Shown in pieces: positions 1 through 62,502 of a DNA stretch of 64,000 nt; position 1 is the first letter of the stretch; each line of letters begins with the position of its first letter. The notes beneath the pieces were generated by a model that was not told where the DNA came from, ran no database searches, and saw nothing but the letters and a program-made list of their open reading frames with translations. The stretch comes from an uncultured virus (IMG/VR IMGVR_UViG_3300044641_008909). Lineage: Duplodnaviria; Heunggongvirae; Uroviricota; Caudoviricetes. The stretch lies in IMG/VR virus record IMGVR_UViG_3300044641_008909. One strand, written 5' to 3'. Made by a program: the position numbers and the translations under genes.

Positions 1-960
1 AGCAACACCAGCAACACCAGCAACACCAGCAACACCAGCAACACCAGCAACACCAGCAACACCAGCAACACCAGCAACACCAGCAACACCAGCAACACCG
101 CATACGCCGCAGGCTGCTCCGTATACACCAGCAACACCAGCAACACCAGCAACACCAGCAACACCAGCAACACCAGCAACACCAGCAGGACCAGCAACAC
201 CAGCAACACCAGCAGGACCAGCAACGCCAAGCTTTACACCAGCAGGACCAGCAACACCAAGCTTTACACCAGCAGGACCAGCAACACCAAGCTTTACACC
301 AGCAGGACCAGCAACACCAAGCTTTACACCATCAACACCATCAACACCAGCAACACCAGCAACACCATCAACACCAGCAACACCATCAACACCAGCAACA
401 CCAGCAACACCAGTATGTGGCAGTTGTTTTTGGCAGTGGTTTCAAGCGGGTGGTTTTTCTTATTGGCTATTGATAAACAACTCATGCACGACAGAATGCT
501 GGTGCGAGAATGCACAACCCACATATTCAGGCGATTATATAGGTCAGGAAGCAACAACTAGTTGCGTATCAAGAACAACACCTACACCATCAGCTACACC
601 AGCAACACCAAGCTTTACACCAGCAACACCAAGCTTTACACCAGCAGCAGGACCAACAACACCAAGCTTTACACCAGCAGCAGGACCAACAACACCAAGC
701 TTTACACCAGCAGCAGGACCAACAACACCAAGCTTTACACCAGCAGGACCAACAACACCAAGCTTTACACCAGCAGGACCAACAACACCAAGCTTTACAC
801 CAGCAACACCAAGCTTTACACCAGCTACACCAGCAGTAGGACCAGCAACACCAGCAGTAGGACCAGCAACACCAGCAGCAACACCAGCAGCAACACCAGC
901 AGTAGGACCAGCAACACCAGCAGTAGGACCAGCAACACCAGCAGTAGGACCAGCAACGCC
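1..960 (+). repeat. Coding tandem repeats (9-bp ACACCAGCA = TPA; 30-33-bp TPSFTPA(A)GPT; PAVGPAT), interrupted by a Cys-rich module at about 413-565
   Basis: Directly visible tandem units, all in frame. Confidence 0.95.
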
Positions 961-3259
961 TACAGTAACGCCAATTCCAGTTCCTGCACCTATTCCCGTT
1001 CCAACACCTGCACCGACACCGACTCCAATACCAAGTCCGATTGCACCTACGACACCAATAGCAGGACCAGCAACACCATTACCGCCTATTGTTCCTGTAG
1101 CACCAGTTGCTCCAGAAGTAAGTGCAGTTTTACCAGCTATTAACTTCCCAACACAATATGATAGCGATGCTAATCTTTATGCTACAAAAGATAGTTTGAG
1201 ATTAATGTTGGCGCAAGATTACAATCTTGGTGACATATCAGTTGTGGTTGAGAACAATCCAATTATGATGGCTTTGTTCCCTGATGCAGGGATTATAACT
1301 TTAACAGAAAACTGTAGTGAACCTGAATTTAGAGCAATTTCTTTCTATTACACATCAAAAACAAACACTACATTTGAAGGAATTAAACTTTTAGATGAAT
1401 TTGTTGATTCCTACAAACCTAAAAATGTAACCAATGTCACATTGAATGTTGTTGCTCAACACCATAATGCTGTTAAAAACGCATTAAAAACAATTCAGAA
1501 TTATGTTGGTGTTGCTAATCAAATTGCTACTAAACCTCTGGTTGGTACGATTGAACAGAGAATTAATTACATTAGAAGTATTGCTTATAATCCAAAACCT
1601 TGGTTTAACGCAAACGCAACAGTAGGAATTGTTCCTTTAGAAGTTTATTTTACAGATTTAAGTTTTAATTCTGGAAAAGAATTACGGGGAAATGATATAA
1701 CTTACACATGGGATTTTGGAGATGGTTCAACAAAAGTTATTAATTATTCCACCAAAAACTCTTCAGCTGATGTAACGCACACATATCAAAATCCGGGAAT
1801 TTATACTGTAACATTAACTGTTACCAATGAATTTGGCACAAATGTTTCAGAATTCCCAGATTATATCAATGCAAGATATGAAGCTCCAGATTTTGCAACA
1901 ATTGTTCCAGAATTAAACACTTATCAAATAGAAATAAATGGACAAGTAAAGACACCAAACAATATTAATCTTTACGTTGTAGTTACAGACAATGGAGAAA
2001 ACGCAATTGATCCAGTGACAGAATACAATTGGATACTAAGCGATGTTCTTTCTCACCCAAATAATTCTTACACAAATATAAGTTATCCTATTGGTGGAGT
2101 CTATGATCTAGTTCTTCAATGCTTGACAGAAAATGGTTCTTATAGAATAACACAAAAAGCAAATTATATTAATGTAATAGAATTAAAGAACTATTATTTG
2201 TTTACTTATGGAGCCAATTCAAATTATATTTACGCAAACGAATTTGGTCTTTTAAGTCACACATTTAAAACAACACAATCTACTGGTCAAGAAGTTTTCA
2301 TTAATGATAATTTCTTGCAAGGCACAGAAAATGACACTCAAGCAATTAGAGAATTTTCTAGAAATAGTTTTTCTACACTTAATAGTGTTTATTCAAGTGG
2401 TTATGGTGGCAGTCTTCTGTTGAATTATGCGACAGGTAGAGATGCCGTTGATCCTGTTAGTTTAGAAAAGATAATTTCTATAAATTATAATGCATTTAAT
2501 GAAACTTATAATGCATTTAATGCAACATACAGACCTTGGAACTGGATAGCTTATGGCTTTGAAAATAATATTTATTATCTATTTGGCAATCCATTAACTC
2601 AACCTGCTGGTCTTTCTTTGACAAATCAACAGATTCTTCAACATGATTTGATATCAAATTCATATTCAACATCAACAATATCAGGGATTCAGTACTTAGG
2701 TTCTTCTGGAGAATTGAAACAAAATCCATCACAATTTGATGATGGAACAAGTCTTTATGGTTATTTCTCAGTATACAGAACTGCATTTAATGGCAGAAAT
2801 GGTTATATTCTTAGGAACAGTGGTATTGGAGATTTCTTTAAAATAAATAGTTTCTATAAAACAAAAGAAGATGGTGTTAACCTTATTTATTACTTTGAAA
2901 AATTAGCTGATATTGCTGGACCAGAAAAATTAGAAGGCGGTCTTGTTAATCTTTCATCTGGTTTGTACTTCTTTAATAACACAGGAAGTGTTTCAGCTTA
3001 TAATCCAAACAATGCTGTTTGGCAAACTGGTGGTCCGGGTATCAATTCACTTGCATTCAAAGGAATGCAAGATACTACCAAGCCAGATTATAATAATCCA
3101 GCAAATACTCTTGTTGCATGTTCTGATAATGACCACATAGCATATGTTAGCTTTGACTACACAGACAATTCATTCATTCAGTTTAGTGATATAACTTTAA
3201 CATTCAGTAGATTGCCAAAAAGGGTAAATTCTTCTCAATGGCATAGTAATATATTTTAA
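2..3259 (+). CDS. Large putative virion surface protein (5'-partial): Thr/Pro/Ala repeats, Cys/Trp module, domain shared with next ORF, PKD domain(s)
   Basis: Frame of ORF 470..3259 is open back to base 2 (ATPATP...VCGSCFWQWFQAGG...), so the start lies upstream of the window; PKD motif YTWDFGDG...HTYQNPGIYTVTLTV. Confidence 0.75.
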   Translation, partial: ATPATPATPATPATPATPATPATPATPATPATPHTPQAAPYTPATPATPATPATPATPATPAGPATPATPAGPATPSFTPAGPATPSFTPAGPATPSFTPAGPATPSFTPSTPSTPATPATPSTPATPSTPATPATPVCGSCFWQWFQAGGFSYWLLINNSCTTECWCENAQPTYSGDYIGQEATTSCVSRTTPTPSATPATPSFTPATPSFTPAAGPTTPSFTPAAGPTTPSFTPAAGPTTPSFTPAGPTTPSFTPAGPTTPSFTPATPSFTPATPAVGPATPAVGPATPAATPAATPAVGPATPAVGPATPAVGPATPTVTPIPVPAPIPVPTPAPTPTPIPSPIAPTTPIAGPATPLPPIVPVAPVAPEVSAVLPAINFPTQYDSDANLYATKDSLRLMLAQDYNLGDISVVVENNPIMMALFPDAGIITLTENCSEPEFRAISFYYTSKTNTTFEGIKLLDEFVDSYKPKNVTNVTLNVVAQHHNAVKNALKTIQNYVGVANQIATKPLVGTIEQRINYIRSIAYNPKPWFNANATVGIVPLEVYFTDLSFNSGKELRGNDITYTWDFGDGSTKVINYSTKNSSADVTHTYQNPGIYTVTLTVTNEFGTNVSEFPDYINARYEAPDFATIVPELNTYQIEINGQVKTPNNINLYVVVTDNGENAIDPVTEYNWILSDVLSHPNNSYTNISYPIGGVYDLVLQCLTENGSYRITQKANYINVIELKNYYLFTYGANSNYIYANEFGLLSHTFKTTQSTGQEVFINDNFLQGTENDTQAIREFSRNSFSTLNSVYSSGYGGSLLLNYATGRDAVDPVSLEKIISINYNAFNETYNAFNATYRPWNWIAYGFENNIYYLFGNPLTQPAGLSLTNQQILQHDLISNSYSTSTISGIQYLGSSGELKQNPSQFDDGTSLYGYFSVYRTAFNGRNGYILRNSGIGDFFKINSFYKTKEDGVNLIYYFEKLADIAGPEKLEGGLVNLSSGLYFFNNTGSVSAYNPNNAVWQTGGPGINSLAFKGMQDTTKPDYNNPANTLVACSDNDHIAYVSFDYTDNSFIQFSDITLTFSRLPKRVNSSQWHSNIF

Positions 3260-8065: not shown

Positions 8066-8090
8066 CCACCTGCACTATTAGTGCAGGTGG
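8066..8090. terminator. Hairpin between convergent genes
   Basis: CCACCTGCACTA-T-TAGTGCAGGTGG inverted repeat. Confidence 0.6.
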
Positions 8091-12619: not shown

Positions 12620-12914
12620 ACATCATTCTTTCTAAATCACTCAAATTATCTGGTGCTTTTTGTTGAGGTTGAGCTACTAGTTCTTCCTCACAAATAGAAA
12701 CAAGGTGATTAATGTTTATAAAATTCATTTTTTCTCCTTTATAGGATTTGTAGAAAATTCCATCTTGATTAATTTCTGTGGGGAAACCTATAAAATAAAC
12801 AATTTGTTGTTCATCTTTAAGATTTCTTTGATGCAAAGATGTAAAAAAACTACATGGTTTTCCAATAAAGTGTTGTAATCTTGTAATTGTTGTTCTGTTA
12901 TCCATGTTAACCAT
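12603..12914 (-). CDS. Hypothetical protein
   Basis: ORF overlapping primase end. Confidence 0.65.
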   Translation of the reverse strand: MVNMDNRTTITRLQHFIGKPCSFFTSLHQRNLKDEQQIVYFIGFPTEINQDGIFYKSYKGEKMNFININHLVSICEEELVAQPQQKAPDNLSDLERMMSKKSS

Positions 12915-13860
12915 CCATTTGAGTTTCAGCTAATTTAATATACTGATACAACATATTTTTGTCAAATTTAACAAGGAATTCATTCCAATCCTTGATATCT
13001 AAAGGTGGACAGACCTTGGTAACTTGACATCCAAAAGATTTTAATAATTTAAAAGAATTTTCTACAGAACTTTTTCCTGCTTCGTCGTTATCAAAAGCCA
13101 AGCATATTTCTTTATTAGCTAAGACAGTGGCTTGTTTTACTGAAATGTATTTGCCACCAACAGCACATGACATAATATTTGCTTCTGTTAAAGACATAGA
13201 ATCAAATTCACCTTCACATACATAAATTTTCTGATTATTTTCGTTCCACTTACGAAAGAATATGACATCTGCTTTGCCCACATTACATTCATCTTTATGA
13301 GGACCAAGATATCTTAGTTTGCTTTGAAACAATGCTCTACCATTGTAATAAATCAAATTGCCTTTTCTGTCATAATATGGGATTACAATTCTTGATTTCA
13401 TCCTGCCATCTATGCCAACAAAAAACAAATCACTATTAATATTTCTGTTGTTCAAGTAATTGTTTGCCATATCTTTCCACCATCTTGGTGCAGAGTTAAC
13501 TTTAACAGCGCCTTCTGGCATTTTTATAGTTTCAAATTCTTCCTTATTAAGCGAATCATAGTCTATTGAATTTTCATCTTGGAAAAATTCATCAGAGCTT
13601 TCTTTTCCAGTGATTCCTAGTATTTGCATTGCTTTGTTGAATTGACAATCTTCTACTTTCATTACAAGAGCAACGACAGTTCCTTTGTTGTTGCTTTTGA
13701 AACAATTAAAAACTCCTTTCCAAAACTTTTTAATATTGCAATAAAGATGATGTTTTGAGTCTTCGCAGAAAGGAGAATTGAATCTTATCTGATCTCCTTT
13801 GACAAGTGGTTGACCAAATTTTTTCTCAGCCCATTTAAAAAAAAGTTGATCATTAATCAT
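12907..13860 (-). CDS. DNA primase (T4 gp61/DnaG-like)
   Basis: N-terminal Zn finger (SPFC..H..C), RIVIPYY, TOPRIM CEGEFD and FDNDEAG, KDWNE. Confidence 0.92.
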   Translation of the reverse strand: MINDQLFFKWAEKKFGQPLVKGDQIRFNSPFCEDSKHHLYCNIKKFWKGVFNCFKSNNKGTVVALVMKVEDCQFNKAMQILGITGKESSDEFFQDENSIDYDSLNKEEFETIKMPEGAVKVNSAPRWWKDMANNYLNNRNINSDLFFVGIDGRMKSRIVIPYYDRKGNLIYYNGRALFQSKLRYLGPHKDECNVGKADVIFFRKWNENNQKIYVCEGEFDSMSLTEANIMSCAVGGKYISVKQATVLANKEICLAFDNDEAGKSSVENSFKLLKSFGCQVTKVCPPLDIKDWNEFLVKFDKNMLYQYIKLAETQMDG

Positions 13861-17766: not shown

Positions 17767-18666
17767 GTGCAAATAGGATCAGATGTAGAGTGTTTCCTAC
17801 GCAATTCTTCTGATCAAGTAATTAATGCTGCAAAGCATATTACACATGACAAAGATAATCCTTACAAAAAACAAAAAATAAAAATATATTATGATAATAT
17901 TTTAGCAGAATTTAATATTCCTCCATGCAATAATGCACGAGAATTTATCACAAATATCACAAACGGCGTTTATCTGTTAGAAAAACTAGCATCTCCTTAT
18001 AAGGTCGATTTGACAGCTGCTGCTATCATTGAGCAAAGTGTGCTGCAAGATGCTAATGCAAAAGAAAGTGGCTGTGACGACGAATACAACGCATATACGT
18101 TGATGATAAACACAGAACCTAAAAACTTTATTAAAAATAGTTCTGTAAGGACTTCAGGTGGACATTTGCACATTGGATCTGTTGGAGATGAAATTCTGCT
18201 TGATCCGATTATTAAACCTTTGTTTGTTTACATGCTTGATTTATTTTTAGGTTTAACGTCTGTTGCTATAGACAATGATTTAAGTCAAATTGATAGAAGG
18301 AAGGTTTTTGGTAGAGCTGGATCTTTTAGACCAAAGAATTATGGAATTGAATATAGAGTTTTGAGTTCTTGGTGGATTGGCAAACCAGAATATACAGCAT
18401 TGGTTTATTCTTTAACTGATTTCGTTTACAATGAAATGATCGAAAAGATTTGGGAAAAATTCTGGACTGTTACAATTGGTGATAAGATTTCATATAATTG
18501 TTTTGGTTATGATGTGAATATTATCAAAGATGCAATTAATAATTGTAATAAATTTGAAGCTGATAGACTTCTTGGTTTTATTTTTAATTTTATGCCTAAT
18601 GATTTGGTTCAGCAAATCAATGATGCAAAAAAAATAGCCTCCCATGCAAACTGCATGGGAGGCTAA
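17767..18666 (+). CDS. phiEco32-like COOH-NH2 ligase type 2 (amidoligase)
   Basis: IGSDVE, DNILAEFNIPP, GCD.EYNAY, RTSGGHLHIG, RR..FG.AG.FRPK.YGIEYR.LS. Confidence 0.88.
   Translation: MQIGSDVECFLRNSSDQVINAAKHITHDKDNPYKKQKIKIYYDNILAEFNIPPCNNAREFITNITNGVYLLEKLASPYKVDLTAAAIIEQSVLQDANAKESGCDDEYNAYTLMINTEPKNFIKNSSVRTSGGHLHIGSVGDEILLDPIIKPLFVYMLDLFLGLTSVAIDNDLSQIDRRKVFGRAGSFRPKNYGIEYRVLSSWWIGKPEYTALVYSLTDFVYNEMIEKIWEKFWTVTIGDKISYNCFGYDVNIIKDAINNCNKFEADRLLGFIFNFMPNDLVQQINDAKKIASHANCMGG
18627..18665 (-). terminator. Intrinsic terminator for minus-strand gene, embedded in the ligase 3' end
   Basis: TAGCCTCCCATGCA-AAC-TGCATGGGAGGCTA with A-tract on left. Confidence 0.75.
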
Positions 18667-39757: not shown

Positions 39758-40840
39758 ATGCGTCTTGTCGAAAAGCTTACAAAGTGTTATGAATGTGGTG
39801 TCAATGTTCTTCTAATTGGAGAACATGGTGTTGGTAAAACATCATTGATTAAAAGTGTGTTTGAATCTCAAGGATTAGTTCTTGGTGATTCATGGTTATA
39901 TTTTTCAGCTAGCACATTAGATCCTTGGGTTGATTTCATTGGTATTCCTAAAGAAAGGGAAAGCAATGGAACTCAATATATTGAATTAATCAGACCAAAA
40001 GCTTTTGCTGATGCTACAAAGATCAGGGCTTTGTTTATTGATGAATATAATAGATCACCAAAGAAAATAAGGAATGCAATTCTTGAACTTATTCAGTTCA
40101 AGAGTATTAATGGTATGAAGTTTCCTAATCTTCAAGTTGTTTGGGCAGCAATAAATCCAGAAGACGAGAATGAAACATATGATGTTGAAAAGTTAGATCC
40201 TGCTCAGAAAGATAGATTCCATGTACCTATCCAAGTTCCATATGCATGTGATGCAGAATATTTTAATAACAAATATGGTTGTGAAAAATCAACTATAGCA
40301 ATTGAATGGTGGAATGCTATTCCTGATGATATTAAGAAAAAGATATCTCCTAGAAGGCTTGACTATGCGTTGGAATTTATGGCAAAAGGAATTCCTTTGG
40401 AAGATATTCTTCCTCAAGAAAGTAATGTAAATAAACTTCGTCAAGCTTTAGCTAATGGTCCAATTGACAAAAAGTTAAGGAAAATGTTTGATGACAAAGA
40501 TATAAAAGATGCAAAGTTGTTTTTAGCTGTTGAAAACAACTTTGATAATGCTATCAAGTATATCAATGAAAGCAAAGAATATATTGAATTCTTTGTTCCT
40601 CTTTTCAAGAAAGAAAAGTTAAGTCTTATTATTTCTGAGGAAGATTCAAAAATTTCTTCTTATATAATTGAAAATTGGAAAATTAATCCAATTTTTAAAT
40701 CAGTGATTGAAAGTGTTTTAACCGCTGGAACTAATCCAAAAGTCATTAAAAAAATACGTTCTTTCTTTTATGAAGATGAATCTGTATGGAAGAATCAGAA
40801 AGCTTCAAATTCTTCAGAACGTGAAAGGATTTTCAAATGA
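39758..40840 (+). CDS. MoxR-like AAA+ ATPase
   Basis: Walker A GEHGVGKT, Walker B LFIDEYNR, AAIN, LDPA.KDRF. Confidence 0.9.
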   Translation: MRLVEKLTKCYECGVNVLLIGEHGVGKTSLIKSVFESQGLVLGDSWLYFSASTLDPWVDFIGIPKERESNGTQYIELIRPKAFADATKIRALFIDEYNRSPKKIRNAILELIQFKSINGMKFPNLQVVWAAINPEDENETYDVEKLDPAQKDRFHVPIQVPYACDAEYFNNKYGCEKSTIAIEWWNAIPDDIKKKISPRRLDYALEFMAKGIPLEDILPQESNVNKLRQALANGPIDKKLRKMFDDKDIKDAKLFLAVENNFDNAIKYINESKEYIEFFVPLFKKEKLSLIISEEDSKISSYIIENWKINPIFKSVIESVLTAGTNPKVIKKIRSFFYEDESVWKNQKASNSSERERIFK

Positions 40841-42075
40841 GCATTAAAGAAGAATGGAATCATATTTTAACTAAGATGGAAAACCATCATAGTATTTTTT
40901 ATAAAATAATTCAAATGGGTAAACCTGTATTTACCGATAAGATTCAAACTGCTGCTGTGCAGTTTGATAAAGAAGGTAATTACTTGATGTTCTTGTTCAA
41001 TGAAAATTTCTGGAATGAATGTGATGAATATAAAAAAATATTTGTCATATGTCATGAAGCGTTACACATTATCCTGAATCATGGTAAAAGATTTCAGGAA
41101 AAGGAAAATCCAAAAATATTCAACATTGCTGTTGATATTGTGGTCAATCATTCTCTTGTAAAAGATTTTGGTTTCATAAGAGAAGAAATTGATGCAAAAA
41201 ATGAATACTGTTGGATTGACACTATTTTTGGTGAGAAAAAACACAATGGTCTTAATTATCCAGACGATGAAACATCTGAGTTTTATTATAATGAAATAAA
41301 AAAAGATCCTGAAAATAATGGTGGATCTGGAAAATCTGGTGGAAATCAGAAGCTTGTTGATGAACATCAAGCATTAAGTGAAGAGGAAATCAAAGAGATA
41401 ATGGAAAAGGTAGGTGGAGAACTTACTGATGATGAGAAAACAGAAATTGATAATATTATTAGTAGTAAAATGGCTGGCAATGGCAGTGGATTTTGGGCAT
41501 CGTTAGGAACAAGAAAAATAATAAAAAATAAAAAATGGGAAAGCGTTATCCACAAATGGAAAATGAAAGTACTTAAAATTGCAGATGTCGATAAAGAACA
41601 ATGGTCACGCAAATCCAGAAGAATGAATGCTTATTATTCTGATATGATATTACCATCAGAAGCTGAAATAGAAGATTATGATAAAGAAACAAAAAAAATA
41701 GATGTATTTTTCTTTCTAGATACATCTGGAAGTTGTTATGGATTGAAAGATCGATTTTTTACAGCAGCTTCAAGTCTGCCAGAAGATCGTTTCAACGTAA
41801 GGTTGTTTTGTTTCGATACAAAGGCTGAAGAGACGACACTTGAGAGCAGAAGGGTGTATGGAGGGGGTGGAACATCATTTGCCTGTATAGAAGAAAAAAT
41901 AAGGGTAGAAACGGAAGGTAAGAAATATCCTTCTGCTGTATTTGTTATCACAGATGGTATGGGAAGCAAGGTTAATCCTATTCATCCTGAAAGATGGTAT
42001 TGGTTTTTATCAGAAGACAACAAAAAGTATATTCCTATTAAATCAAATGTTTACAATCTTGATGATTATGTTTGA
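40837..42075 (+). CDS. Metallopeptidase-vWA protein (DUF2201-like)
   Basis: HEALH; MIDAS DTSGS, GGGTSF, ITDG. Confidence 0.9.
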   Translation: MSIKEEWNHILTKMENHHSIFYKIIQMGKPVFTDKIQTAAVQFDKEGNYLMFLFNENFWNECDEYKKIFVICHEALHIILNHGKRFQEKENPKIFNIAVDIVVNHSLVKDFGFIREEIDAKNEYCWIDTIFGEKKHNGLNYPDDETSEFYYNEIKKDPENNGGSGKSGGNQKLVDEHQALSEEEIKEIMEKVGGELTDDEKTEIDNIISSKMAGNGSGFWASLGTRKIIKNKKWESVIHKWKMKVLKIADVDKEQWSRKSRRMNAYYSDMILPSEAEIEDYDKETKKIDVFFFLDTSGSCYGLKDRFFTAASSLPEDRFNVRLFCFDTKAEETTLESRRVYGGGGTSFACIEEKIRVETEGKKYPSAVFVITDGMGSKVNPIHPERWYWFLSEDNKKYIPIKSNVYNLDDYV

Positions 42076-56901: not shown

Positions 56902-57855
56902 ATGACAAATTTTTCAGCATTTGTTCTTAAAAGAGATAACGAAATTTTAGAAGAGTTCAATCGTCTTTTGGATAAAAATTATAAACTAGATCAAATTATT
57001 GAACATTTTAACAGAAAAGGAATCATGCTTAATGAAAGCATTCTTGGCAGCATTGGCAGTACTGCCAAGGGATTAGTTGCAGGATTGGGTCATGTTGGTG
57101 AGCAAAATATTAAAGGAATTTTAAATATCATTAGTGGAGCTGCTAAAGGTTCTGCTGGTGGAGCTTTTGGATTAACAAGAGCAGGATTAGGAGCAATCGA
57201 AACTGGCGTTGGTCTTCCAATAGGAGCAATAAGTAACGATTGGGCTTTGATAGATATGGGTTCAAGTGAAGTTAAAAAGGGATTGTATTCTGCTAGTAGT
57301 TCTTTATTAAGTGGTTTAAGTCAAATAGGAAAAGGTGCTGGTCAGATTGTAGCATCTCCAGTAACTGGTGCTATAAGAATGTTTCAAGCTGCTCGTCAGC
57401 CCGGATTTGGCAAACAACCGGGAAGTGAGTTGTCTCAATATTTTGGATTAGGAAGAAAGTCAAGACCCGGAGATATGGAAGAAGAATCTCCAGAAGAAAC
57501 AGAATCACCAATACCTGAAAGAGGCAGTCACAAAAAAGATCCAATTATTAGTAATGGCGTTGAAGCTTTAAGAGTTTTATTATCACAAGAAGAATTTGGA
57601 AATAATGCTTTAATATTATCTTACATTCCACCAGAAGATGGCGATAGGATATACTCATTCAGAGTAAATGAATTGATTGAAAAGATAAAAGAAATGGTAG
57701 ATAAAATTAATTCCATGGAAGGATCAAATAAAAAAGAACAAAAAAATAAGTATAAAAACTTAAAACCAGCTGTAGAACAGATGTTGAAACGTATTATAAA
57801 TACTTATGGAAGAGATTATTCATTGTATTTTAGGGAACACAGTTCTCAAATATAA
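56902..57855 (+). CDS. Gly-zipper-rich protein with capsid-targeting-like N-terminus
   Basis: TAAATA 56881-56886; long GxxxG-rich segment. Confidence 0.7.
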   Translation: MTNFSAFVLKRDNEILEEFNRLLDKNYKLDQIIEHFNRKGIMLNESILGSIGSTAKGLVAGLGHVGEQNIKGILNIISGAAKGSAGGAFGLTRAGLGAIETGVGLPIGAISNDWALIDMGSSEVKKGLYSASSSLLSGLSQIGKGAGQIVASPVTGAIRMFQAARQPGFGKQPGSELSQYFGLGRKSRPGDMEEESPEETESPIPERGSHKKDPIISNGVEALRVLLSQEEFGNNALILSYIPPEDGDRIYSFRVNELIEKIKEMVDKINSMEGSNKKEQKNKYKNLKPAVEQMLKRIINTYGRDYSLYFREHSSQI

Positions 57856-58534
57856 ATTTTTCTTGATATAATTTATTGATTTCTTCAGTGTTAAAATCTT
57901 TAAATTTATCACATTCACTGATGTTATAAATTTCATCACGAATTTCTTCTGGTAATTTTTTCACCCAATTGCTGCAAAAACACCAAATGGGATCTAGTTC
58001 TCTACATCTTACTTGAAGCAAGATTCTTTTTATATTTTTCACAAAAGTTTCATAATCTAAGTTATCACCAAGAGTTCTTTTGAGTGATTCTAATGATTTA
58101 TTAAGTCCTACGTTTATGCTAGACTGATCTAATGTTTTATCATTAGCTTTCAGAACCATTCTTTTTTCTTCAATTTTTTTACTCCAAACATAAAAACGGT
58201 TCATTGCTTTTATGCCATGTAACATTCCGGGATAAATGTATGGATTGTTTTTTTCAAGTATTTTAGCTATTTCAAATTGAGCTTTTATAAAAAGAAAATA
58301 GTTAGAAGATGTTTCAAATTCAGCTCTTCTATCTTTGACGAGTTTAAGCAAATGTTTGAAAACTGCTTGTTTTTTAACTGGCTTTAAGTCGTTAAATGGC
58401 GTGTGTTTATAGTCAGGAAAATAAAATCTCTCACAATTTAGGTAGTAGATTGTGAGATGGTATGCAAAAAGCATATCTGGTTCGCCAGATAGCTTGAACA
58501 TTTGCTCGTTGGATGCTTTGTAAAATTCTCGCAT
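57830..58534 (-). CDS. Hypothetical protein
   Basis: 234-aa ORF, AGGA SD. Confidence 0.7.
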   Translation of the reverse strand: MREFYKASNEQMFKLSGEPDMLFAYHLTIYYLNCERFYFPDYKHTPFNDLKPVKKQAVFKHLLKLVKDRRAEFETSSNYFLFIKAQFEIAKILEKNNPYIYPGMLHGIKAMNRFYVWSKKIEEKRMVLKANDKTLDQSSINVGLNKSLESLKRTLGDNLDYETFVKNIKRILLQVRCRELDPIWCFCSNWVKKLPEEIRDEIYNISECDKFKDFNTEEINKLYQEKFIFENCVP

Positions 58535-58759
58535 GTCTGAATCCTAACTGACGTTTCTGAGAAGTCAAATAGATTTTCTGGCATACCAAAACAGTTCTGG
58601 GCTGGAAATAAGAAAACCATGTTTAAATCTAATCTTTTGGGTCTAGGAGCGTTCAATATTTGAAAATTGCATTCTGACTCATCTAAATGAGATCGTGGCT
58701 TTAAGAGGCTTTTTTGTAAAGATTATGATTTACATAATTTTTTTTATTTTTCTGTTTGA

Positions 58760-58775
58760 TTGGCACGGTATTTGT
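58760..58775 (+). promoter_or_regulatory. Sigma54-like -24/-12 motif (imperfect)
   Basis: TTGGCACGGTATTTGT; GT instead of GC at -12. Confidence 0.45.
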
Positions 58776-58844
58776 TTCGTGCGTGTGCGTGTGCGCCTGC
58801 GTTTAAGTATTTAATTATATTATGTATTTGTAAGTAAGTTAATT

Positions 58845-58935
58845 TAGCAGTAGTATTTTATTACTCTGAGCGTAGCGAAGAGTAATAAATATACTACTGC
58901 TATAGAGTAGAATTACGAAGTAATTCTACTCTATA
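58845..58935. repeat. Two abutting long inverted repeats
   Basis: 23-bp stem with one bulge (58845-58902) and perfect 16-bp stem with GAA loop (58901-58935). Confidence 0.92.
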
Positions 58936-58969
58936 TTAATTTAACTTAAATATATTAATTTAACTTTAG

Positions 58970-58987
58970 TTGCAAAAATCATGCCAA
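58970..58987 (-). promoter_or_regulatory. Sigma54 -24/-12 motif
   Basis: TTGGCATGATTTTTGCAA on minus strand, correct GG-N10-GC spacing. Confidence 0.6.
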
Positions 58988-59040
58988 AAAAAATGATTTA
59001 ACAATTTGCTTTTTGAAAAATTCTGCGTAAAGTTGTTTTT

Positions 59041-60360
59041 GTGAACCAAGACTTTCTTACCTTTGAAAAAATGTTCGACGCTTTTAGCGTTGAGCCATAT
59101 GTTTTTTTACAAAATTTAAATGAACCCGATTTGACTGACAGAAAAAATCTCTTATTAAATTTACAGTTTTCTGGACCCAAAGGGTCTAAATTTGAAATAA
59201 AATTACATAAAGATAATGCGTGTTCATTTGTACACCGATTTAATTCATGTTTGGAGAAATTTAATCGTCCAATTGTTTGTTTGGATGCAAAATTATTTCA
59301 TTCTTTTTGTATTAAAGTTGGTTGTAATATCTTGCCAGATAGAACTAAGTTTTTCGACTTAAATTGGTTTGTTGATTATTCAGACATAAAAAGTAGTTTT
59401 TCTACTTTCTCTGAAGTTCATTCAATCTTTATGAAGTTCATTAAGTCAGATTTAATGGAAGTTTATAGAAATGTATATCAACAATTGATTTGCTCAACTG
59501 TTCCGCTGATGGAGAATGAAGGCATCATTCTTGATGATTCAGCTAGTTTTATTTTTCCTTATTATTCATCCAAATTTCAGGAAAACGGAAGACTTAATTC
59601 AAGTCTAGCTTCAGATAGGAATTTTAATCCTCATGGGATGACTAATGAAATAAAGAATAACCTTATCTTGCCTAATGATGATGAAGTTTTTGTTGCGTTT
59701 GACTTTAAAGCACTTGAGTTATATGTACTTGCATTTTTATGCAAAGACAGTAATCTGAATACATTACTTTATAACACATGCCATCCTTATGAGCAGATAG
59801 CACAATATGTCTTAAATTTAAGCAATTTTGCAGATGAAAATTTGAAGGAACTAGGGAAAAAGATATTTTTGCCAGCAATTTATGGAATTTCTGCTAATAA
59901 ATTGTCAGAACTTTTAAATTGTTCAGCTATTGAGGCTAGTGATTACTTAAAGAAAATGAAGTCTATATTTAGTAAATCTTTTGATTACGTCAGTGGTTTT
60001 ATGGGTCAAGCTACCAACTTTGGTCATTGTATTGATTATTTTAATAGAAAGAAAAGTTTTAATGTAGAAGAATCTTATAAAGCAATGAATTTTTGTATTC
60101 ATTCACCAGCAGCTACATTGTGCTTTATCAAGATGAATGAACTTAGTAATATAAAAACAAATGATTTCAGACTATTGTTTTCAATTCATGACTGTTTCGT
60201 TTTTGCTGTTAAAGAAAAAAACGTCAATGAATCAATCAGTGTTATAAAAACAAAATTGGAAGAAGAATTTAAGGAACAAAAGGGTCTTAAGTTATTTGTT
60301 GATATAAAAGTTGGTAATAATCTATCCAACTTGAAAAATTTTAATTTAAATTTGACTTAA
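59041..60360 (+). CDS. Short, divergent family A DNA polymerase
   Basis: ENGRL, motif A AFDFKALELYVLA, motif B GKKIFLPAIYG, motif C IHD. Confidence 0.8.
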   Translation: MNQDFLTFEKMFDAFSVEPYVFLQNLNEPDLTDRKNLLLNLQFSGPKGSKFEIKLHKDNACSFVHRFNSCLEKFNRPIVCLDAKLFHSFCIKVGCNILPDRTKFFDLNWFVDYSDIKSSFSTFSEVHSIFMKFIKSDLMEVYRNVYQQLICSTVPLMENEGIILDDSASFIFPYYSSKFQENGRLNSSLASDRNFNPHGMTNEIKNNLILPNDDEVFVAFDFKALELYVLAFLCKDSNLNTLLYNTCHPYEQIAQYVLNLSNFADENLKELGKKIFLPAIYGISANKLSELLNCSAIEASDYLKKMKSIFSKSFDYVSGFMGQATNFGHCIDYFNRKKSFNVEESYKAMNFCIHSPAATLCFIKMNELSNIKTNDFRLLFSIHDCFVFAVKEKNVNESISVIKTKLEEEFKEQKGLKLFVDIKVGNNLSNLKNFNLNLT

Positions 60361-60408
60361 TTAAAAATCAAGCTAAGGTTCAGCTATTAGTAATTCAGGA
60401 GGCATATT

Positions 60409-60963
60409 ATGAAGATATTTGACCTTTTCAGGATTGATGCGGAAGAATTTTTAGCTTTAGAAGAGAAATTTGGTCAGTTGTGTTTGTTTGCTAGCTGGCA
60501 AATGATGCAAAATAACTCTCGTAATAACCATCAGTTGGATGTAGAAGACATCAAACAAGAACTTCTTATGGCTGTTCTTAGAGCTGGAAGTTATTACAAG
60601 AGACAAACTTATATCGAATCAAGTTTTGAGATATTAGATAAAAATGTTCCTCAAGAAGGAATATTTCGTAAAGTGTTTGATTCTTTGAAGGATCTATGGA
60701 AGAATAAGACGCATCATGGTGCTTACCGAAGGAAATTTGGTGATCCCCAAGAAGAAATTTTAGAGAAATTAGTTAAAAAATTTGTTCCCAAGGAAGACAG
60801 ACCAGATATTAAGTTGAGGCTTGATATTAACACAAAATTTATCATTTACACCAAGCAGATCATATGGAATGCTGCTAGACATATCGGTAAGAAGATTACC
60901 AAAGAAAAACATATCCGCTTTGGTCAAGTTTCACTTTCAGAACACGAACATCTTTACCTCTAA
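60409..60963 (+). CDS. Hypothetical protein, possible divergent sigma region 2
   Basis: EDIKQELLMAVLRA...KFIIYTKQIIWN; AGGAGG SD. Confidence 0.5.
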   Translation: MKIFDLFRIDAEEFLALEEKFGQLCLFASWQMMQNNSRNNHQLDVEDIKQELLMAVLRAGSYYKRQTYIESSFEILDKNVPQEGIFRKVFDSLKDLWKNKTHHGAYRRKFGDPQEEILEKLVKKFVPKEDRPDIKLRLDINTKFIIYTKQIIWNAARHIGKKITKEKHIRFGQVSLSEHEHLYL

Positions 60964-60969
60964 CGGAAG

Positions 60970-62502
60970 GTGCCAATGGACGGCAAACTTACTGAAGATC
61001 AAGAGAAACTTCTTGAAGCTATGCTTCAGAAGCAAAACTATCAAGCAAAATTCCGTTGGGATGAAAATTTCCAGCGGCGCATGCTTGGTATTCTGCTAAC
61101 AGATAGAAACTTTCTTATTCAAGGTAAAGCATTAGTTATCCCTCAATACTTCTCAAATGAAGTACACATAGAAATATGCAAAATACTTTTTGATTTATTT
61201 GATGAAACAAAAAATATCCCTGAAAAATTTATTATGGAAAATGAATTACTTGAAAAAGTGCGTGAAAAACCTGATGCAATTAAAATTTATTATAAATCTG
61301 AACTTGAATCATTATACGAATATTTTATTCCAAACCAATCTTCCAGAGATATATTACTTACAAAATTGCTAAACTTTTCTAAGATTCAAAGTCTTAGATT
61401 GGCTATGGAAGAATCGCAAAGAGACCTTAAAAAGAATCCTGATTCCGAGGAAACATGGGCAAAAGTTTATGAAAGATTTCGTAATTGCATGATGGTTTCC
61501 AAGACGTTTGATGCAGGGTTTGAATACTTCACACAAATTGATAATATGTTTCTAGAACTTAATAAAGATGACGAAAAAATAGATAAATTTACTTCTGGCT
61601 TTTTGTCTATAGACTTTGAATTATCTGGTGGTGGTTGTCGTCGAGGTGAAATTTATGCTTTTATTGCTCTTCCCGGTGTTGGTAAATCACTTGCTTTAGT
61701 AAAAGCTGCTGTTGAAAATGTCAAGAAAGGATACAAAGTAGTATTCGTTTCTGTCGAAATGGATTGGGTTTCAATCTCTAAAAGATTTACTTCAGCTTAT
61801 GCATGCGTTCCATATTCTAAACTGATGAGCAAAAAAGATGAAATTAAACAGATGATAGAATATGATATCATGAATTTCTCTGATAAGAATCGATTGGTTG
61901 TCAAGCAGTTTCCGGCAGGAACGATTGATGTAAATGATATTCGTGCTTATTTGAATCAACTTGAGTTGCATGGATTTGTGCCAGATATGTTGATAGTTGA
62001 TTATCCGGGCGAAATGAAAGATGCACCGGGGGTTCCTGTTTGGGAAAGCAAGTATAGAATCATAAGGGATCTTAGGGGTCTTGCTTGCGAGAAGAAAATG
62101 GTTGTATTTACAGCTATGCAACCAAACAAGAGTGCTTCAGAACTTTCCAGTTCTGAATTTATTGAGGAGGGTAACATTGGCGCTTCATTTGACATGTTCA
62201 AACCTTTGGATGGTTTATGGAGTATTAATAGAACTACTGATGAGGCTGGTGCCCAAGTTGGTAGAGTATTTGTTGTCAAGCATAGAAATGGGAAAAGTAG
62301 ATATCATTTTCCTATTGAATATAACAATGAATTCTTAACAATCACAGAAATAGATTTTGAAAAATACAAAACTAAGATGCATAATAAGTCTCAGCAAGAT
62401 GCTAACACTTACAGTGTGGCAAGTGATGCATCGCATCTTATTGATGATAAGAAAAAGAAGAACAAGAAAAAACAGAACGACCCTTCTAATCCAATTGACT
62501 GA
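60970..62502 (+). CDS. Replicative DnaB-like helicase (T4 gp41-like)
   Basis: ALPGVGKS, SVEM, VKQFP, IVDY, TAMQ, KHRNG. Confidence 0.93.
   Translation: MPMDGKLTEDQEKLLEAMLQKQNYQAKFRWDENFQRRMLGILLTDRNFLIQGKALVIPQYFSNEVHIEICKILFDLFDETKNIPEKFIMENELLEKVREKPDAIKIYYKSELESLYEYFIPNQSSRDILLTKLLNFSKIQSLRLAMEESQRDLKKNPDSEETWAKVYERFRNCMMVSKTFDAGFEYFTQIDNMFLELNKDDEKIDKFTSGFLSIDFELSGGGCRRGEIYAFIALPGVGKSLALVKAAVENVKKGYKVVFVSVEMDWVSISKRFTSAYACVPYSKLMSKKDEIKQMIEYDIMNFSDKNRLVVKQFPAGTIDVNDIRAYLNQLELHGFVPDMLIVDYPGEMKDAPGVPVWESKYRIIRDLRGLACEKKMVVFTAMQPNKSASELSSSEFIEEGNIGASFDMFKPLDGLWSINRTTDEAGAQVGRVFVVKHRNGKSRYHFPIEYNNEFLTITEIDFEKYKTKMHNKSQQDANTYSVASDASHLIDDKKKKNKKKQNDPSNPID

Follow-up and report, generated by a model that had tools for sequence, protein, structure and literature searches.

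Two inward-facing sigma-54-type promoter motifs enclosing a pair of hairpins lie in the 506-bp gap between two diverging genes of an uncultured, low-GC tailed phage from lake water, represented here by a 64,000-nt stretch of DNA (the window). Our tentative proposal, held with a probability of roughly 40%, is that this element controls the phage replication module at the DNA level, as an origin-type site that sigma-54 RNA polymerase gates or primes. It most likely marks a start or control point of replication, of a kind that has no description so far. All items reported in the initial sequence-only reading were confirmed in place, and its inference of a replication origin or a sigma-54-controlled switch stands in part: covariation, the hairpin tips and the presence of one tip sequence in initiator genes support a DNA-level link to replication, but GC skew and A+T content do not. 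Should phages gate replication or a switch by sigma-54 polymerase, phage development would be tied in a new way to host physiology, through nitrogen, stress and envelope signals, and the sigma-54 site pairs and arrays of uncultured phages would acquire a function.

The locus and its facing sites

The left neighbour of the element is a 234-aa gene and the right neighbour is a PolA-like gene, both transcribed outward. The features of the locus are as follows (coordinates in the window).

57830..58534, minus strand: conserved 234-aa gene (ORF) without an assigned function, directed away from the element
58541..58568, minus strand: sigma-70-like promoter (TTGACT, 16 nt, TAGGAT) immediately upstream of the start codon of the left gene
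58761..58776, plus strand: left sigma-54-type −24/−12 site TGGCACGGTATTTGTT, facing right, with GT instead of GC in the −12 element
58778..58796, no strand: alternating pyrimidine-purine run CGTGCGTGTGCGTGTGCGC, (CG/TG)n, 19 nt, in the expected start zone of transcription from the left site (near 58787, about 12 nt downstream of the −12 element)
58836..58846, no strand: inverted partial copy AAGTTAATTTA of the direct-repeat core, abutting hairpin 1
58845..58902, plus strand: hairpin 1, 22 bp with a single bulged base and a structured, purine-rich top (folding, covariation)
58864..58882, plus strand: 19-mer CTCTGAGCGTAGCGAAGAG, forming the tip of hairpin 1; only the middle base of its loop varies
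58901..58935, plus strand: hairpin 2, 16 bp without mismatch, capped by a C-GAA-G triloop, 2 nt in common with hairpin 1
58932..58966, no strand: two direct repeats of TATATTAATTTAACTT (58932–58947 and 58951–58966), starts 19 bp apart, iteron-like
58971..58986, minus strand: right sigma-54-type −24/−12 site TGGCATGATTTTTGCA, facing left
59005..59033, plus strand: sigma-70-like promoter (TTTGCT, 17 nt, TAAAGT) of the PolA-like gene, read from the alignment
59041..60360, plus strand: PolA-like polymerase gene, 439 aa (Pfam DNA_pol_A, E-value 7e-27), opening the polymerase-helicase run
59073..59095, plus strand: small hairpin or palindrome inside codons 11–18 of the polymerase gene, with co-changing arms
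60970..62502: DnaB-like helicase (Pfam/PHROG searches), downstream of the PolA-like gene

The replication run downstream of the element comprises the PolA-like gene, a 184-aa ORF and the DnaB-like helicase, in agreement with the initial placement of the element ahead of a PolA-helicase run. In addition, a UvsW-like helicase and an SbcCD-like (gp46/47-type) nuclease are encoded at most 10 kb from the element. A phage primase is encoded at 12907–13860. The virus is contractile-tailed and is not a schitovirus. A blastn search with region 58000–61000 found nothing similar among 50,697 phage records; the relatives compared here are the nearest record, G001, and related contigs. A metagenome scan with the PolA profile returned only six loci, all of them from close relatives.

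The 234-aa gene is present alongside the element in every relative, its homologues adjoining the element at nine loci with E-values from 1e-45 to 1e-92. Searches of Pfam, PHROG and PDB sequences with its product found no match. The AF2 model is all-helical (pLDDT 73.6); Foldseek retrieved nothing for it at an E-value of 0.001 or better, and the best VIA-align score, Z 7.2 to helical proteins, is within the background for helical models.

Both neighbours have promoters of their own. The box of the left-gene promoter (AAGTCAA on the plus strand) is kept in relatives. The PolA-side promoter, which ends 7 nt 5′ of the GTG start codon, reads TTGACT, 17 nt, TAGATT in relatives, and a promoter scan recovers the copy in L005. 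Since each gene thus has its own sigma-70-like promoter at the start codon, the sigma-54-type sites appear to be dispensable for the neighbouring genes. The small hairpin inside the polymerase gene lies about 124 bp upstream of the start predicted, near 58960, for the right sigma-54-type site, and its arms change in step, from GACGCT/AGCGTT in the window to GACACA/TGTGTC in relatives.

The sigma-54-like motifs noted earlier as facing each other are indeed present, at 58761–58776 (+) and 58986–58971 (−). Pattern TGGCAYGNNNNTTGYW has only two matches in the 64 kb, both at the element and inward-facing, with 0.09 expected; two matches were obtained in 2 of 100 shuffles. Across five related contigs (423 kb), all eight strict matches are located at the element, and the reversed control pattern has none. 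All 18 sites in nine sequences fit the sigma-54 consensus down to the W that follows TTGC, with the extended consensus TGGCAYG-N4-TTGCW and the GG and GC elements at exact spacing, and we infer that sigma-54 polymerase binds them. The left site of the window, with its TTGT, resembles sites bound in ChIP-seq in E. coli, among them pspA and pspG (PMC4591121).

Of the sigma-54 control proposed initially, the conservation of both sites stood, and searches of phage fragments recovered no regulator: no sigma-54 gene (Sigma54_DBD) was found in 10 phage contigs, and no true enhancer-binding activator in five phage fragments, contigs that represent 10–23% of the estimated genome. Matches to PF00158 cover only the Walker A part and belong to MoxR-type AAA proteins; the control was matched in 14 of 14 genomes, archaea included. 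Upstream of the two sigma-54-type promoters, where binding sites of an AAA+ activator would be expected some 80–150 bp away, there is no palindrome or repeated enhancer-like site common to both. Of the 24 sequencing runs listed with the sequence, none is recorded as RNA.

Hairpins, repeats and the 19-mer

As single-stranded DNA, segment 58840–58940 folds with −29.8 kcal/mol on the plus strand (z = −9.7) and −29.7 kcal/mol on the minus strand (z = −10.6), and in neither case was any of 200 shuffles as stable. The hairpin initially counted as 23 bp is present with 22 pairs and a one-base bulge, and the 13 nt at its top, TGAGCGTAGCGAA, form in turn a GC-GTA-GC mini-hairpin. The abutting perfect 16-bp hairpin with the C-GAA-G loop was recovered as well; among the 14 perfect triloop hairpins of the window it is the longest and the only C-GAA-G one whose stem reaches 7 bp.

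Covariation in relatives, proposed earlier as a check, revealed that both stems change only in Watson-Crick fashion. For hairpin 2 (eight sequences, 13 common pairs), 104 of 104 cells are Watson-Crick, with two-sided changes at 9 of the 13 pairs and no wobble. Hairpin 1 is paired in 150 of 152 cells, with two-sided substitutions at 8 of 19 pairs and one-sided ones at none. The 32 pairs counted across both hairpins show zero one-sided (wobble) changes. The C-GAA-G tips are invariant and on one strand, which together with the Watson-Crick-only covariation points to DNA hairpins. Judging from these substitutions, the hairpins are under selection as structures and offer a clear natural example of GNA-tipped DNA hairpins. 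A stable, strand-specific DNA hairpin with a GNA mini-hairpin tip, as found here, is the form expected of a single-strand initiation hairpin. Mini-hairpins of the GCGAAGC type are exceptionally stable as DNA, the GNA triloop being a DNA stabiliser, and are reported from the G4 complementary-strand origin, RSF1010 ssiA and the N4 early promoters (PMC13037366).

Covariation restricted to Watson-Crick pairs may also come from RNAs of both strands, each of which has to fold.

The order of site, AT-rich repeats, hairpin, hairpin, repeats and facing site is kept in nine distinct relatives, and a second family (L210/L233), whose PolA is 35% identical, has the same architecture. Structure and motifs are therefore conserved, with compensatory changes, the opposite of the outcome that the sequence-only reading had named as its refutation. 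In L210, C-GAA-G occurs in both hairpins, on the polymerase-sense strand, and the architecture is retained without the 19-mer, so mere insertion of a repeat does not account for the hairpins. Moreover, constant position and orientation down to 35% PolA identity argue for a function tied to the locus.

The combination of a sigma-54 pair and a hairpin is not supported as a general phage design: only 6 of 44 distinct facing-pair modules have a C-GNA-G hairpin. Four of these six belong to the element's own family, L229 represents the motif's own palindrome, and L217 is the sole independent case.

The alternating run noted initially is present at 58778–58796 but is not a fixed part of the element: most relatives have there instead a palindrome, AATACTAAGTATT, at a constant short distance after the left site, and family L210 has a similar run beside the right site. 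The two direct repeats were found as described. Together with the inverted copy they make up the repeats of the element in the window, 11–16 nt long and AT-rich; relatives have different short AT-rich repeats at the corresponding place, flanking the hairpins.

The 19-mer could fold through CTCT/AGAG, tandem G.A pairs and GC/GC into a GNA triloop, which is GTA in the window and GAA in relatives. Exact matches were found in 34 viral stretches and in at least 123 stretches of bacterial and archaeal genomes. Of the viral matches, 24 are in contigs of 47–69% GC without sigma-54 sites. In these high-GC phages, the 19-mer is on the non-coding strand in 11 of 11 ORFs examined, always in the same frame, and corresponds to SSLRSE in a linker, spelled with codons that these ORFs seldom use (TCT 9%, CTT 6%, TCA 11%). 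For 9 of the 11 ORFs the PHROGs label is replication initiation or primosomal protein. In cellular genomes, 80 loci from many phyla contain 82 copies, 47 of them with fixed flanks GTCA and TC. The phage 19-mer is single-copy and has no such flanks. Rfam has no family for the 19-mer repeat, and literature searches returned only antibody papers, nothing of relevance, for SSLRSE and only unrelated material for the 14-mer TGAGCGAAGCGAAG. The 19-mer joins three settings never connected before, namely, a large lake phage, high-GC phages with the sequence in their initiator genes and a hairpin repeat of many bacterial phyla, and what reads the hairpin becomes a directly testable question.

The origin-type reading and its rivals

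If the element is an origin-type control site, its central inverted repeats would be extruded as DNA hairpins upon unwinding of the region, caused either by negative supercoiling behind the two outward sigma-70-type promoters or by an R-loop from inward transcription. On the polymerase-sense strand, C-GAA-G and the 19-mer, both of them purine-rich tips of extra stability, could then act as a single-strand initiation signal, in priming or helicase loading on that strand or in keeping the R-loop open, and the flanking short AT-rich repeats may be binding places for an initiator. Docked at the inward-facing sites, one on either side, would be host sigma-54 RNA polymerase. This is, to our knowledge, the sole bacterial polymerase that binds DNA and then waits for an ATP-driven signal; because it stays closed until the ATP-driven activator fires, the sites could gate the event or supply bidirectional primer transcripts. 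The location, in the replication module and next to promoters, is the one expected of a transcription-activated or R-loop origin, and we infer from the features described above the extrusion of the hairpins and any role in replication.

Several observations speak against an origin. Cumulative GC skew, the analysis of which had been proposed as a check, shows a steady rise between 52.5 and 64 kb and does not turn at 58.8 kb; where it does turn, the direction of the genes changes too. With 28–30% GC, against 27–30% for the locus and 28–30% for the genome, the element is not richer in A+T than its surroundings, as an unwinding element would be. An initiator candidate is wanting as well, the conserved neighbour gene having no recognisable family or fold in the searches performed.

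A more specific form of the origin-type reading would have closed sigma-54 polymerase flanking the twin hairpins and activator-fired converging transcripts forming R-loops that prime in both directions. Hairpins of the displaced strand would hold these R-loops, and the 19-mer would be a portable initiation signal, common to in-gene origins of unrelated phages and to the bacterial repeat. Taken together, these propositions are unlikely.

The main rival, doubtful in our estimation, is a face-to-face promoter switch resembling the pR/pL arrangement of coliphage 186, in which both sites are real activator-dependent sigma-54 promoters. The left site would produce a second transcript of the polymerase-helicase operon, with a structured leader of about 250 nt, and the right site likewise one of the 234-aa gene. 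With an overlap of about 175 nt, the transcripts would control one another by polymerase collision or antisense pairing, and the hairpins would be RNA structures for pausing, processing or termination. Such a switch would agree with the fit of 18 of 18 sites to the consensus and with their resemblance to E. coli-bound sites (PMC4591121). In other phages, sigma-54-type arrays adjoin terminase or GP88-family genes, not replication genes, which favours a transcriptional role for the motif. There is also a phage precedent: the YuA record has three '-24/-12 consensus' promoters with high promoter-trap activity, and YuA is described as dependent on both sigma factors (PMC10914365). Furthermore, the AATACTAAGTATT palindrome of relatives is placed like an operator after the left site, hairpin 2 with a T-rich tail scores as a leftward terminator in L005 and L009, and Watson-Crick-only covariation suits a structure needed in both transcripts. 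However, both genes already have sigma-70-like promoters, neither an activator gene nor a common enhancer-like site was found, and the terminator-like tail is missing in the window, where the two hairpins abut. No RNA role is known for the invariant one-strand GAA tips or for the purine-rich 19-mer, and the GNA triloop is described as stabilising DNA (PMC13037366). Likewise, Rfam 15 has no family at the element at E-values up to 1 (window's element, L030, and L019, L023 and L044), and high-GC phages carry the 19-mer on the strand absent from mRNA.

It is improbable that the facing sites hold inactive host sigma-54 polymerase, or a phage protein of like specificity, as a barrier or sink, and that hairpin 1 is a widespread selfish or Ssn-type nuclease-target hairpin, neither part directly starting replication. 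The motif occurs as facing pairs or arrays in about 40 other viral contigs among 49 pattern matches, many of these pairs being tight palindromes with no room for both polymerases to fire, and sigma-54 polymerase sits on promoters in an inactive state (PMC4591121). On the side of the hairpin, the multi-copy nature of the 19-mer in bacteria, with 47 of 82 copies flanked by GTCA and TC, suggests that it may be no origin part but a selfish hairpin or a nuclease target. Ssn nucleases (GIY-YIG, acting on ssDNA) and hairpin repeats have been described (Chenal et al. 2025; PMC11893778), and in five such genomes family-related repeats adjoin 2 of 6 small GIY-YIG frames. Yet the phage copy is single and unflanked, no GIY-YIG gene was found in five related phage contigs, and a GIY-YIG pattern (regex) was absent within 400 nt of the genome repeat at all 80 loci. 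By eye, the consensus of the genome repeat misses the published degenerate search sequence of Ssn-related motifs, the misfit coming after GTCAY. The architecture kept by L210 without the 19-mer speaks against a borrowed hairpin, and the constant position and orientation at 35% PolA identity point to a locus-bound function.

Still less probable is a bidirectional terminator or RNase III-type processing site between two transcription units. The hairpins are long, perfect and equally stable on both strands, and hairpin 2 receives terminator-like calls, on the plus strand with its tail in the window and on the minus strand in L005 and L009 (relatives' tail, CTTTAGTTTA). However, the flanking genes diverge, so there is nothing to terminate except transcripts from the inward sites; the U-run or T-rich tails expected of intrinsic terminators are not conserved across relatives on either side, and the invariant tips and the sigma-54-type sites would be left unexplained.

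Finally, a miniature mobile element of about 230 bp, with the sites and some 40 bp of similar downstream sequence as terminal inverted repeats, is very improbable, for although the arms are alike in inverted orientation and have apparently exchanged sequence (the left arm of the window is close to the right arm of relatives, and both L210 arms are of one type), no target-site duplication is visible at the borders, each contig has a single copy, always at the same locus, and the arm ends equal the sigma-54 consensus.

Comparison with known systems

The facing sites share exact GG/GC spacing and the extended consensus with the YuA/RpoN promoters, a phage precedent for working sigma-54-type promoters. 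Unlike in YuA, where the sites are unpaired and head late structural genes, those of the element form an inward-facing pair, separated by about 195 bp that contain the DNA hairpins. The element also differs from classic sigma-54 promoters, in that its neighbours have their own sigma-70-like promoters and an activator gene or enhancer site was not found. A literature search on sigma-54 and phage, its scope being journals outside subscription, returned nothing on facing sites or hairpins, and no account of the element came to light.

Transcription-activated or R-loop origins are represented by T4 oriF/oriG, the T7 primary origin and ColE1. Like these, the element combines host-polymerase promoters beside a candidate unwinding region with a replication cluster, and a UvsW-like helicase is encoded nearby. 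By contrast, its converging promoters are of the sigma-54 type, and its centre is a hairpin pair and not a plain AT-rich unwinding element.

In RSF1010, ssiA and ssiB are on opposite strands, whereas both hairpins of the element are on one strand and their stems are 13–23 bp long. With these sites and the G4 origin, the element has in common a GNA-type mini-hairpin tip on one defined strand in a replication region (PMC13037366).

Like the candidate hairpins of the element, the extruded DNA hairpins in the promoters of the N4 virion RNA polymerase have a GAA triloop closed by C-G. The stems of N4 hairpin promoters are 5–7 bp long. The N4 P1 hairpin promoter, for example, is GTTGC-GAA-GCAAC (PMC13434306). 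A search for a T7/N4-type RNA polymerase (PF00940) in five contigs gave no match, with the controls silent too, the N4 polymerase being very divergent.

As to Ssn-related motifs, the 19-mer is the core of a multi-copy hairpin repeat, GTCA-...-TC, of many phyla, a repeat that has their general shape, namely, GTCA, a short stem, a structured top and GAxTC. It differs from them in being single-copy and unflanked in the phage, with no GIY-YIG gene nearby, and in the misfit, by eye, to the search sequence.

Lambda ori is located inside gene O. The 19-mer of the window is, unlike lambda ori, intergenic, and the element has no lambda-type array of four iterons; in the high-GC phages, however, the 19-mer is found, like lambda ori, within replication-initiator genes, in the part that encodes a linker.

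Flanking genes and facing sigma-54-type sites

The window comes from the contig of an uncultured tailed phage of low GC content (~31%); the sequencing runs containing its sequence are lake-water metagenomes, and G001, the record nearest to it, is 91 kb long and rated 16% complete. Structural genes include those for tail sheath, tube and baseplate hub. A gene for a MoxR-type AAA ATPase followed by one for a DUF2201 putative metallopeptidase (39758-42075) adjoins the tail/baseplate genes. A large PKD-domain protein is encoded at positions 1-3259, where the initial 2 kb differ from the remainder of the window in their GC content of 43% and strong AT skew. The replication and nucleotide genes encode a DnaG-type primase, an exonuclease, ribonucleotide reductase, SbcCD-like and UvsW-like proteins, a PolA-like polymerase, a DnaB-like helicase and dCMP deaminase. 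The element occupies most of a 506-bp gap between two genes and, as the sequence-only reading stated, lies ahead of the PolA-helicase run.

Features of the element and its surroundings (window positions)
57830-58534, leftward: left gene, 234 aa, function unassigned
58541-58568, minus strand: sigma-70-like promoter (TTGACT-type) of the left gene
58761-58776, plus strand: left sigma-54-type site, TGGCACGGTATTTGTT
58845-58902, plus strand: hairpin 1, with the 19-mer as its top (58864-58882)
58901-58935, plus strand: hairpin 2
58986-58971, minus strand: right sigma-54-type site, TGGCATGATTTTTGCA
59005-59033, plus strand: sigma-70-like promoter (TTGACT-type) of the PolA-like gene
59041-60360, rightward: PolA-like gene

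The sigma-70-like promoters of both flanking genes end ~7 nt ahead of the start codons (GTG for the polymerase), a placement suggesting that the mRNAs have little or no leader and that the host uses classic -35/-10 promoters. Since both genes have promoters of their own, the inward sigma-54-type sites are not required for their expression. At 59073-59095, within codons 11-18 of the PolA-like gene, a hairpin or palindrome differs between the window and its relatives in both arms together, even though amino acids change as a result; it may act as a translational operator, or else as an upstream site serving the right sigma-54-type site. Two more long perfect G+C-rich hairpins, of 14 bp and 11 bp, lie at gene ends (18635-18665 and 8066-8090) and are probably terminators.

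The facing motifs recognized from the sequence are indeed there, and they are the only matches to the TGGCAYGNNNNTTGYW pattern in 64 kb (0.09 expected). The full sigma-54 consensus with two mismatches allowed has 8 matches in the window, against 5.2 expected; with a single mismatch, only the two element sites and one intragenic site are left. The sites resemble in sequence the sigma-54-bound sites of E. coli described in PMC4591121, where the ChIP-seq sites of pspA and pspG also have TTGT. According to the same source, sigma-54 polymerase stays bound but inactive until an activator acts. Neither a sigma-54 gene nor a true sigma-54 activator gene was found in the phage fragments searched.

Conservation and covariation of the hairpins

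A search with the PolA-like protein yielded 8 viral and 6 metagenome loci. With the viral contigs found through the 19-mer added, nine distinct versions of the element were obtained, at PolA identities of 59-63%. Each locus has exactly two sigma-54-type sites, facing each other and spanning 215-236 bp, and the 18 sites of the nine versions read YTGGCAYG-N4-TTGCW throughout, except for TTGT at the left site of the window. In five related contigs, 423 kb in all, the strict pattern matched 8 times, always at the element, against 0 matches of the reversed control. A second family (L210/L233), whose PolA shows 35% identity and whose left gene matches at E = 1e-45, has the parts in the same succession, from a site through two direct AT-rich repeats, the two hairpins, an AT-rich stretch and a purine-pyrimidine run to the facing site. 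Structure and motifs are thus conserved in the nine versions and in L210/L233.

The sequence-only reading placed the alternating run, the twin hairpins and the direct repeats correctly. The run does not keep its position: it adjoins the left site in the window but the right one in L210, and in most relatives the palindrome AATACTAAGTATT replaces it. The two arms of the element are alike in inverted orientation and seem, from the alignments, to exchange sequence. Both hairpins of L210/L233 are plain C-GAA-G, of 10 and 14 bp. By this comparison the 19-mer top of hairpin 1 is dispensable, but having two GAA-tipped hairpins on the polymerase-sense strand is not. A third conserved hairpin, CCGTTTA...TAAACGG, lies between the start of the left gene and the left sigma-54-type site (2571-2592 in the relative locus L009, same place in other relatives); it has compensatory changes in L023, and its window counterpart (~58609-58640) is poorly formed.

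Folded as single-stranded DNA, the hairpin pair reaches ~-30 kcal/mol whichever strand is taken (z near -10), and the 64-kb window has no further C-GAA-G hairpin whose stem is at least 7 bp. Both stems covary in the relatives. Hairpin 2 is Watson-Crick in 104/104 cells, and both partners differ in 9 of 13 pairs; shuffles never equalled the observed covariation, and slid alignments were 30-40% paired. Hairpin 1 is paired in 150/152 cells, and both partners differ in 8 of its 19 pairs. Among the 32 counted pairs none shows a one-sided change and hence there is no G.T intermediate; one G.T pair seen by eye in L005 falls in a column of unreliable alignment, which was excluded from the count. The tip of hairpin 2 (AC-GAA-GT) is invariant, as is that of hairpin 1 except for the middle triloop base (GTA in the window, GAA elsewhere, both GNA). 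GCGAAGC-type sequences are described as exceptionally stable DNA mini-hairpins located at the G4 origin, RSF1010 ssiA and N4 early promoters (PMC13037366); the N4 P1 promoter hairpin is given as GTTGC-GAA-GCAAC (PMC13434306). Selection acts on the hairpins as structures, probably in DNA form. Watson-Crick-only covariation combined with strand-specific purine tips is best matched by a DNA hairpin or cruciform; such covariation would also be produced if RNAs of both strands had to fold.

The 19-mer in other genomes

Viral contigs match the 19-mer, CTCTGAGCG[A/T]AGCGAAGAG, exactly in 34 cases, 10 of them in the phage family of the window and 24 in contigs of 47-69% GC, none of which has sigma-54-type sites. 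From the non-family contigs we examined 11 ORFs, selected as long ORFs covering the motif (~position 1501 of each locus among L017-L048, from unrelated high-GC phages). In 11/11 the 19-mer is on the non-coding strand and in the identical frame, reading SSLRSE within a low-complexity linker, in codons rare in those same ORFs; the search demanded exact spelling, and other spellings of SSLRSE may exist. By PHROGs, 9/11 are replication initiation or primosomal proteins of several families, and 5/11 have DUF1376, DnaT or HTH_36 domains in Pfam. One unrelated 19-mer-bearing contig (L022, 2046-2281) has a Pistol ribozyme match (51.8 bits) beside a short tmRNA-model match (60.5 bits).

In bacterial and archaeal contigs, taken at one genome per species, at least 123 stretches contain the 19-mer; among the matches listed, taxa include Chloroflexota, Acidobacteriota, Planctomycetota, Caldisericota, Firmicutes and Bacteroidota. 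The 80 fetched genome loci (L051-L130) hold 82 copies, 47 with flanks GTCA and TC. There the 19-mer is the core of a repeat that is multi-copy in many phyla, usually TGTCA-19mer-TCTC, with many copies in one assembly; in L072 and L116 a copy is nested inside a related repeat's loop. The repeat has no match in Rfam. A link to Ssn, GIY-YIG single-strand nucleases that cut repeats (PMC11893778), is weakly suggested, and the five related phage contigs searched contain no GIY-YIG gene. The replication-gene setting in phages and the multi-phylum repeat together suggest that the 19-mer is a portable hairpin read by something widespread; in phages it lies at replication genes.

Possible roles of the element

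We favour, with a probability of roughly 0.4, a DNA hairpin element of origin type that sigma-54 polymerase gates or primes. Its place within the replication module, the flanking repeats, the DNA-type hairpins, the company of the 19-mer elsewhere (phage replication genes) and the independence of the flanking genes from the sigma-54-type sites all speak for it. Against it, the cumulative GC skew, a check proposed for an origin, makes no turn at the element, the AT content is no higher than that of the genome, no initiator is recognised, and the motif in other phages looks transcriptional.

The main rival, which we regard as somewhat less likely, is a face-to-face sigma-54 promoter switch; the flanking genes' own promoters count against it. 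A site, N180-210 and a facing site occur in 49 viral stretches (44 distinct modules), only 4 from the family of the window. Most of the other modules hold arrays: about 40 unrelated phage contigs (among L194-L242) have several sigma-54-type sites in series, in many cases as tight palindromes of 33-38 bp, each made of two facing sites, that repeat every 43-57 bp; two DnaA-box-like TTATCCACA words lie between motifs in L222, L227, L231 and L241. The genes beside these modules are mixed, with terminase genes in 5 loci and Pfam GP88-family genes in 5, and the two helicase-linked matches are single pairs whose loci include a gene for a DnaB-like helicase. Among unrelated modules, L217 alone combines a C-GAA-G hairpin with a sigma-54-type site, so the hairpin form is particular to the family of the window. 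Lesser candidates are polymerase parked at the sites in combination with a borrowed hairpin, a site of termination or processing, and a miniature mobile element.

Sigma-54-type promoters have a precedent in phage YuA, whose record annotates three with '-24/-12 consensus sequence, high activity'. Our literature search found no description of facing sigma-54 sites around GNA-tipped hairpins; the novelty is that known parts, sigma-54 sites and GNA-tipped hairpins, stand here in a new combination.
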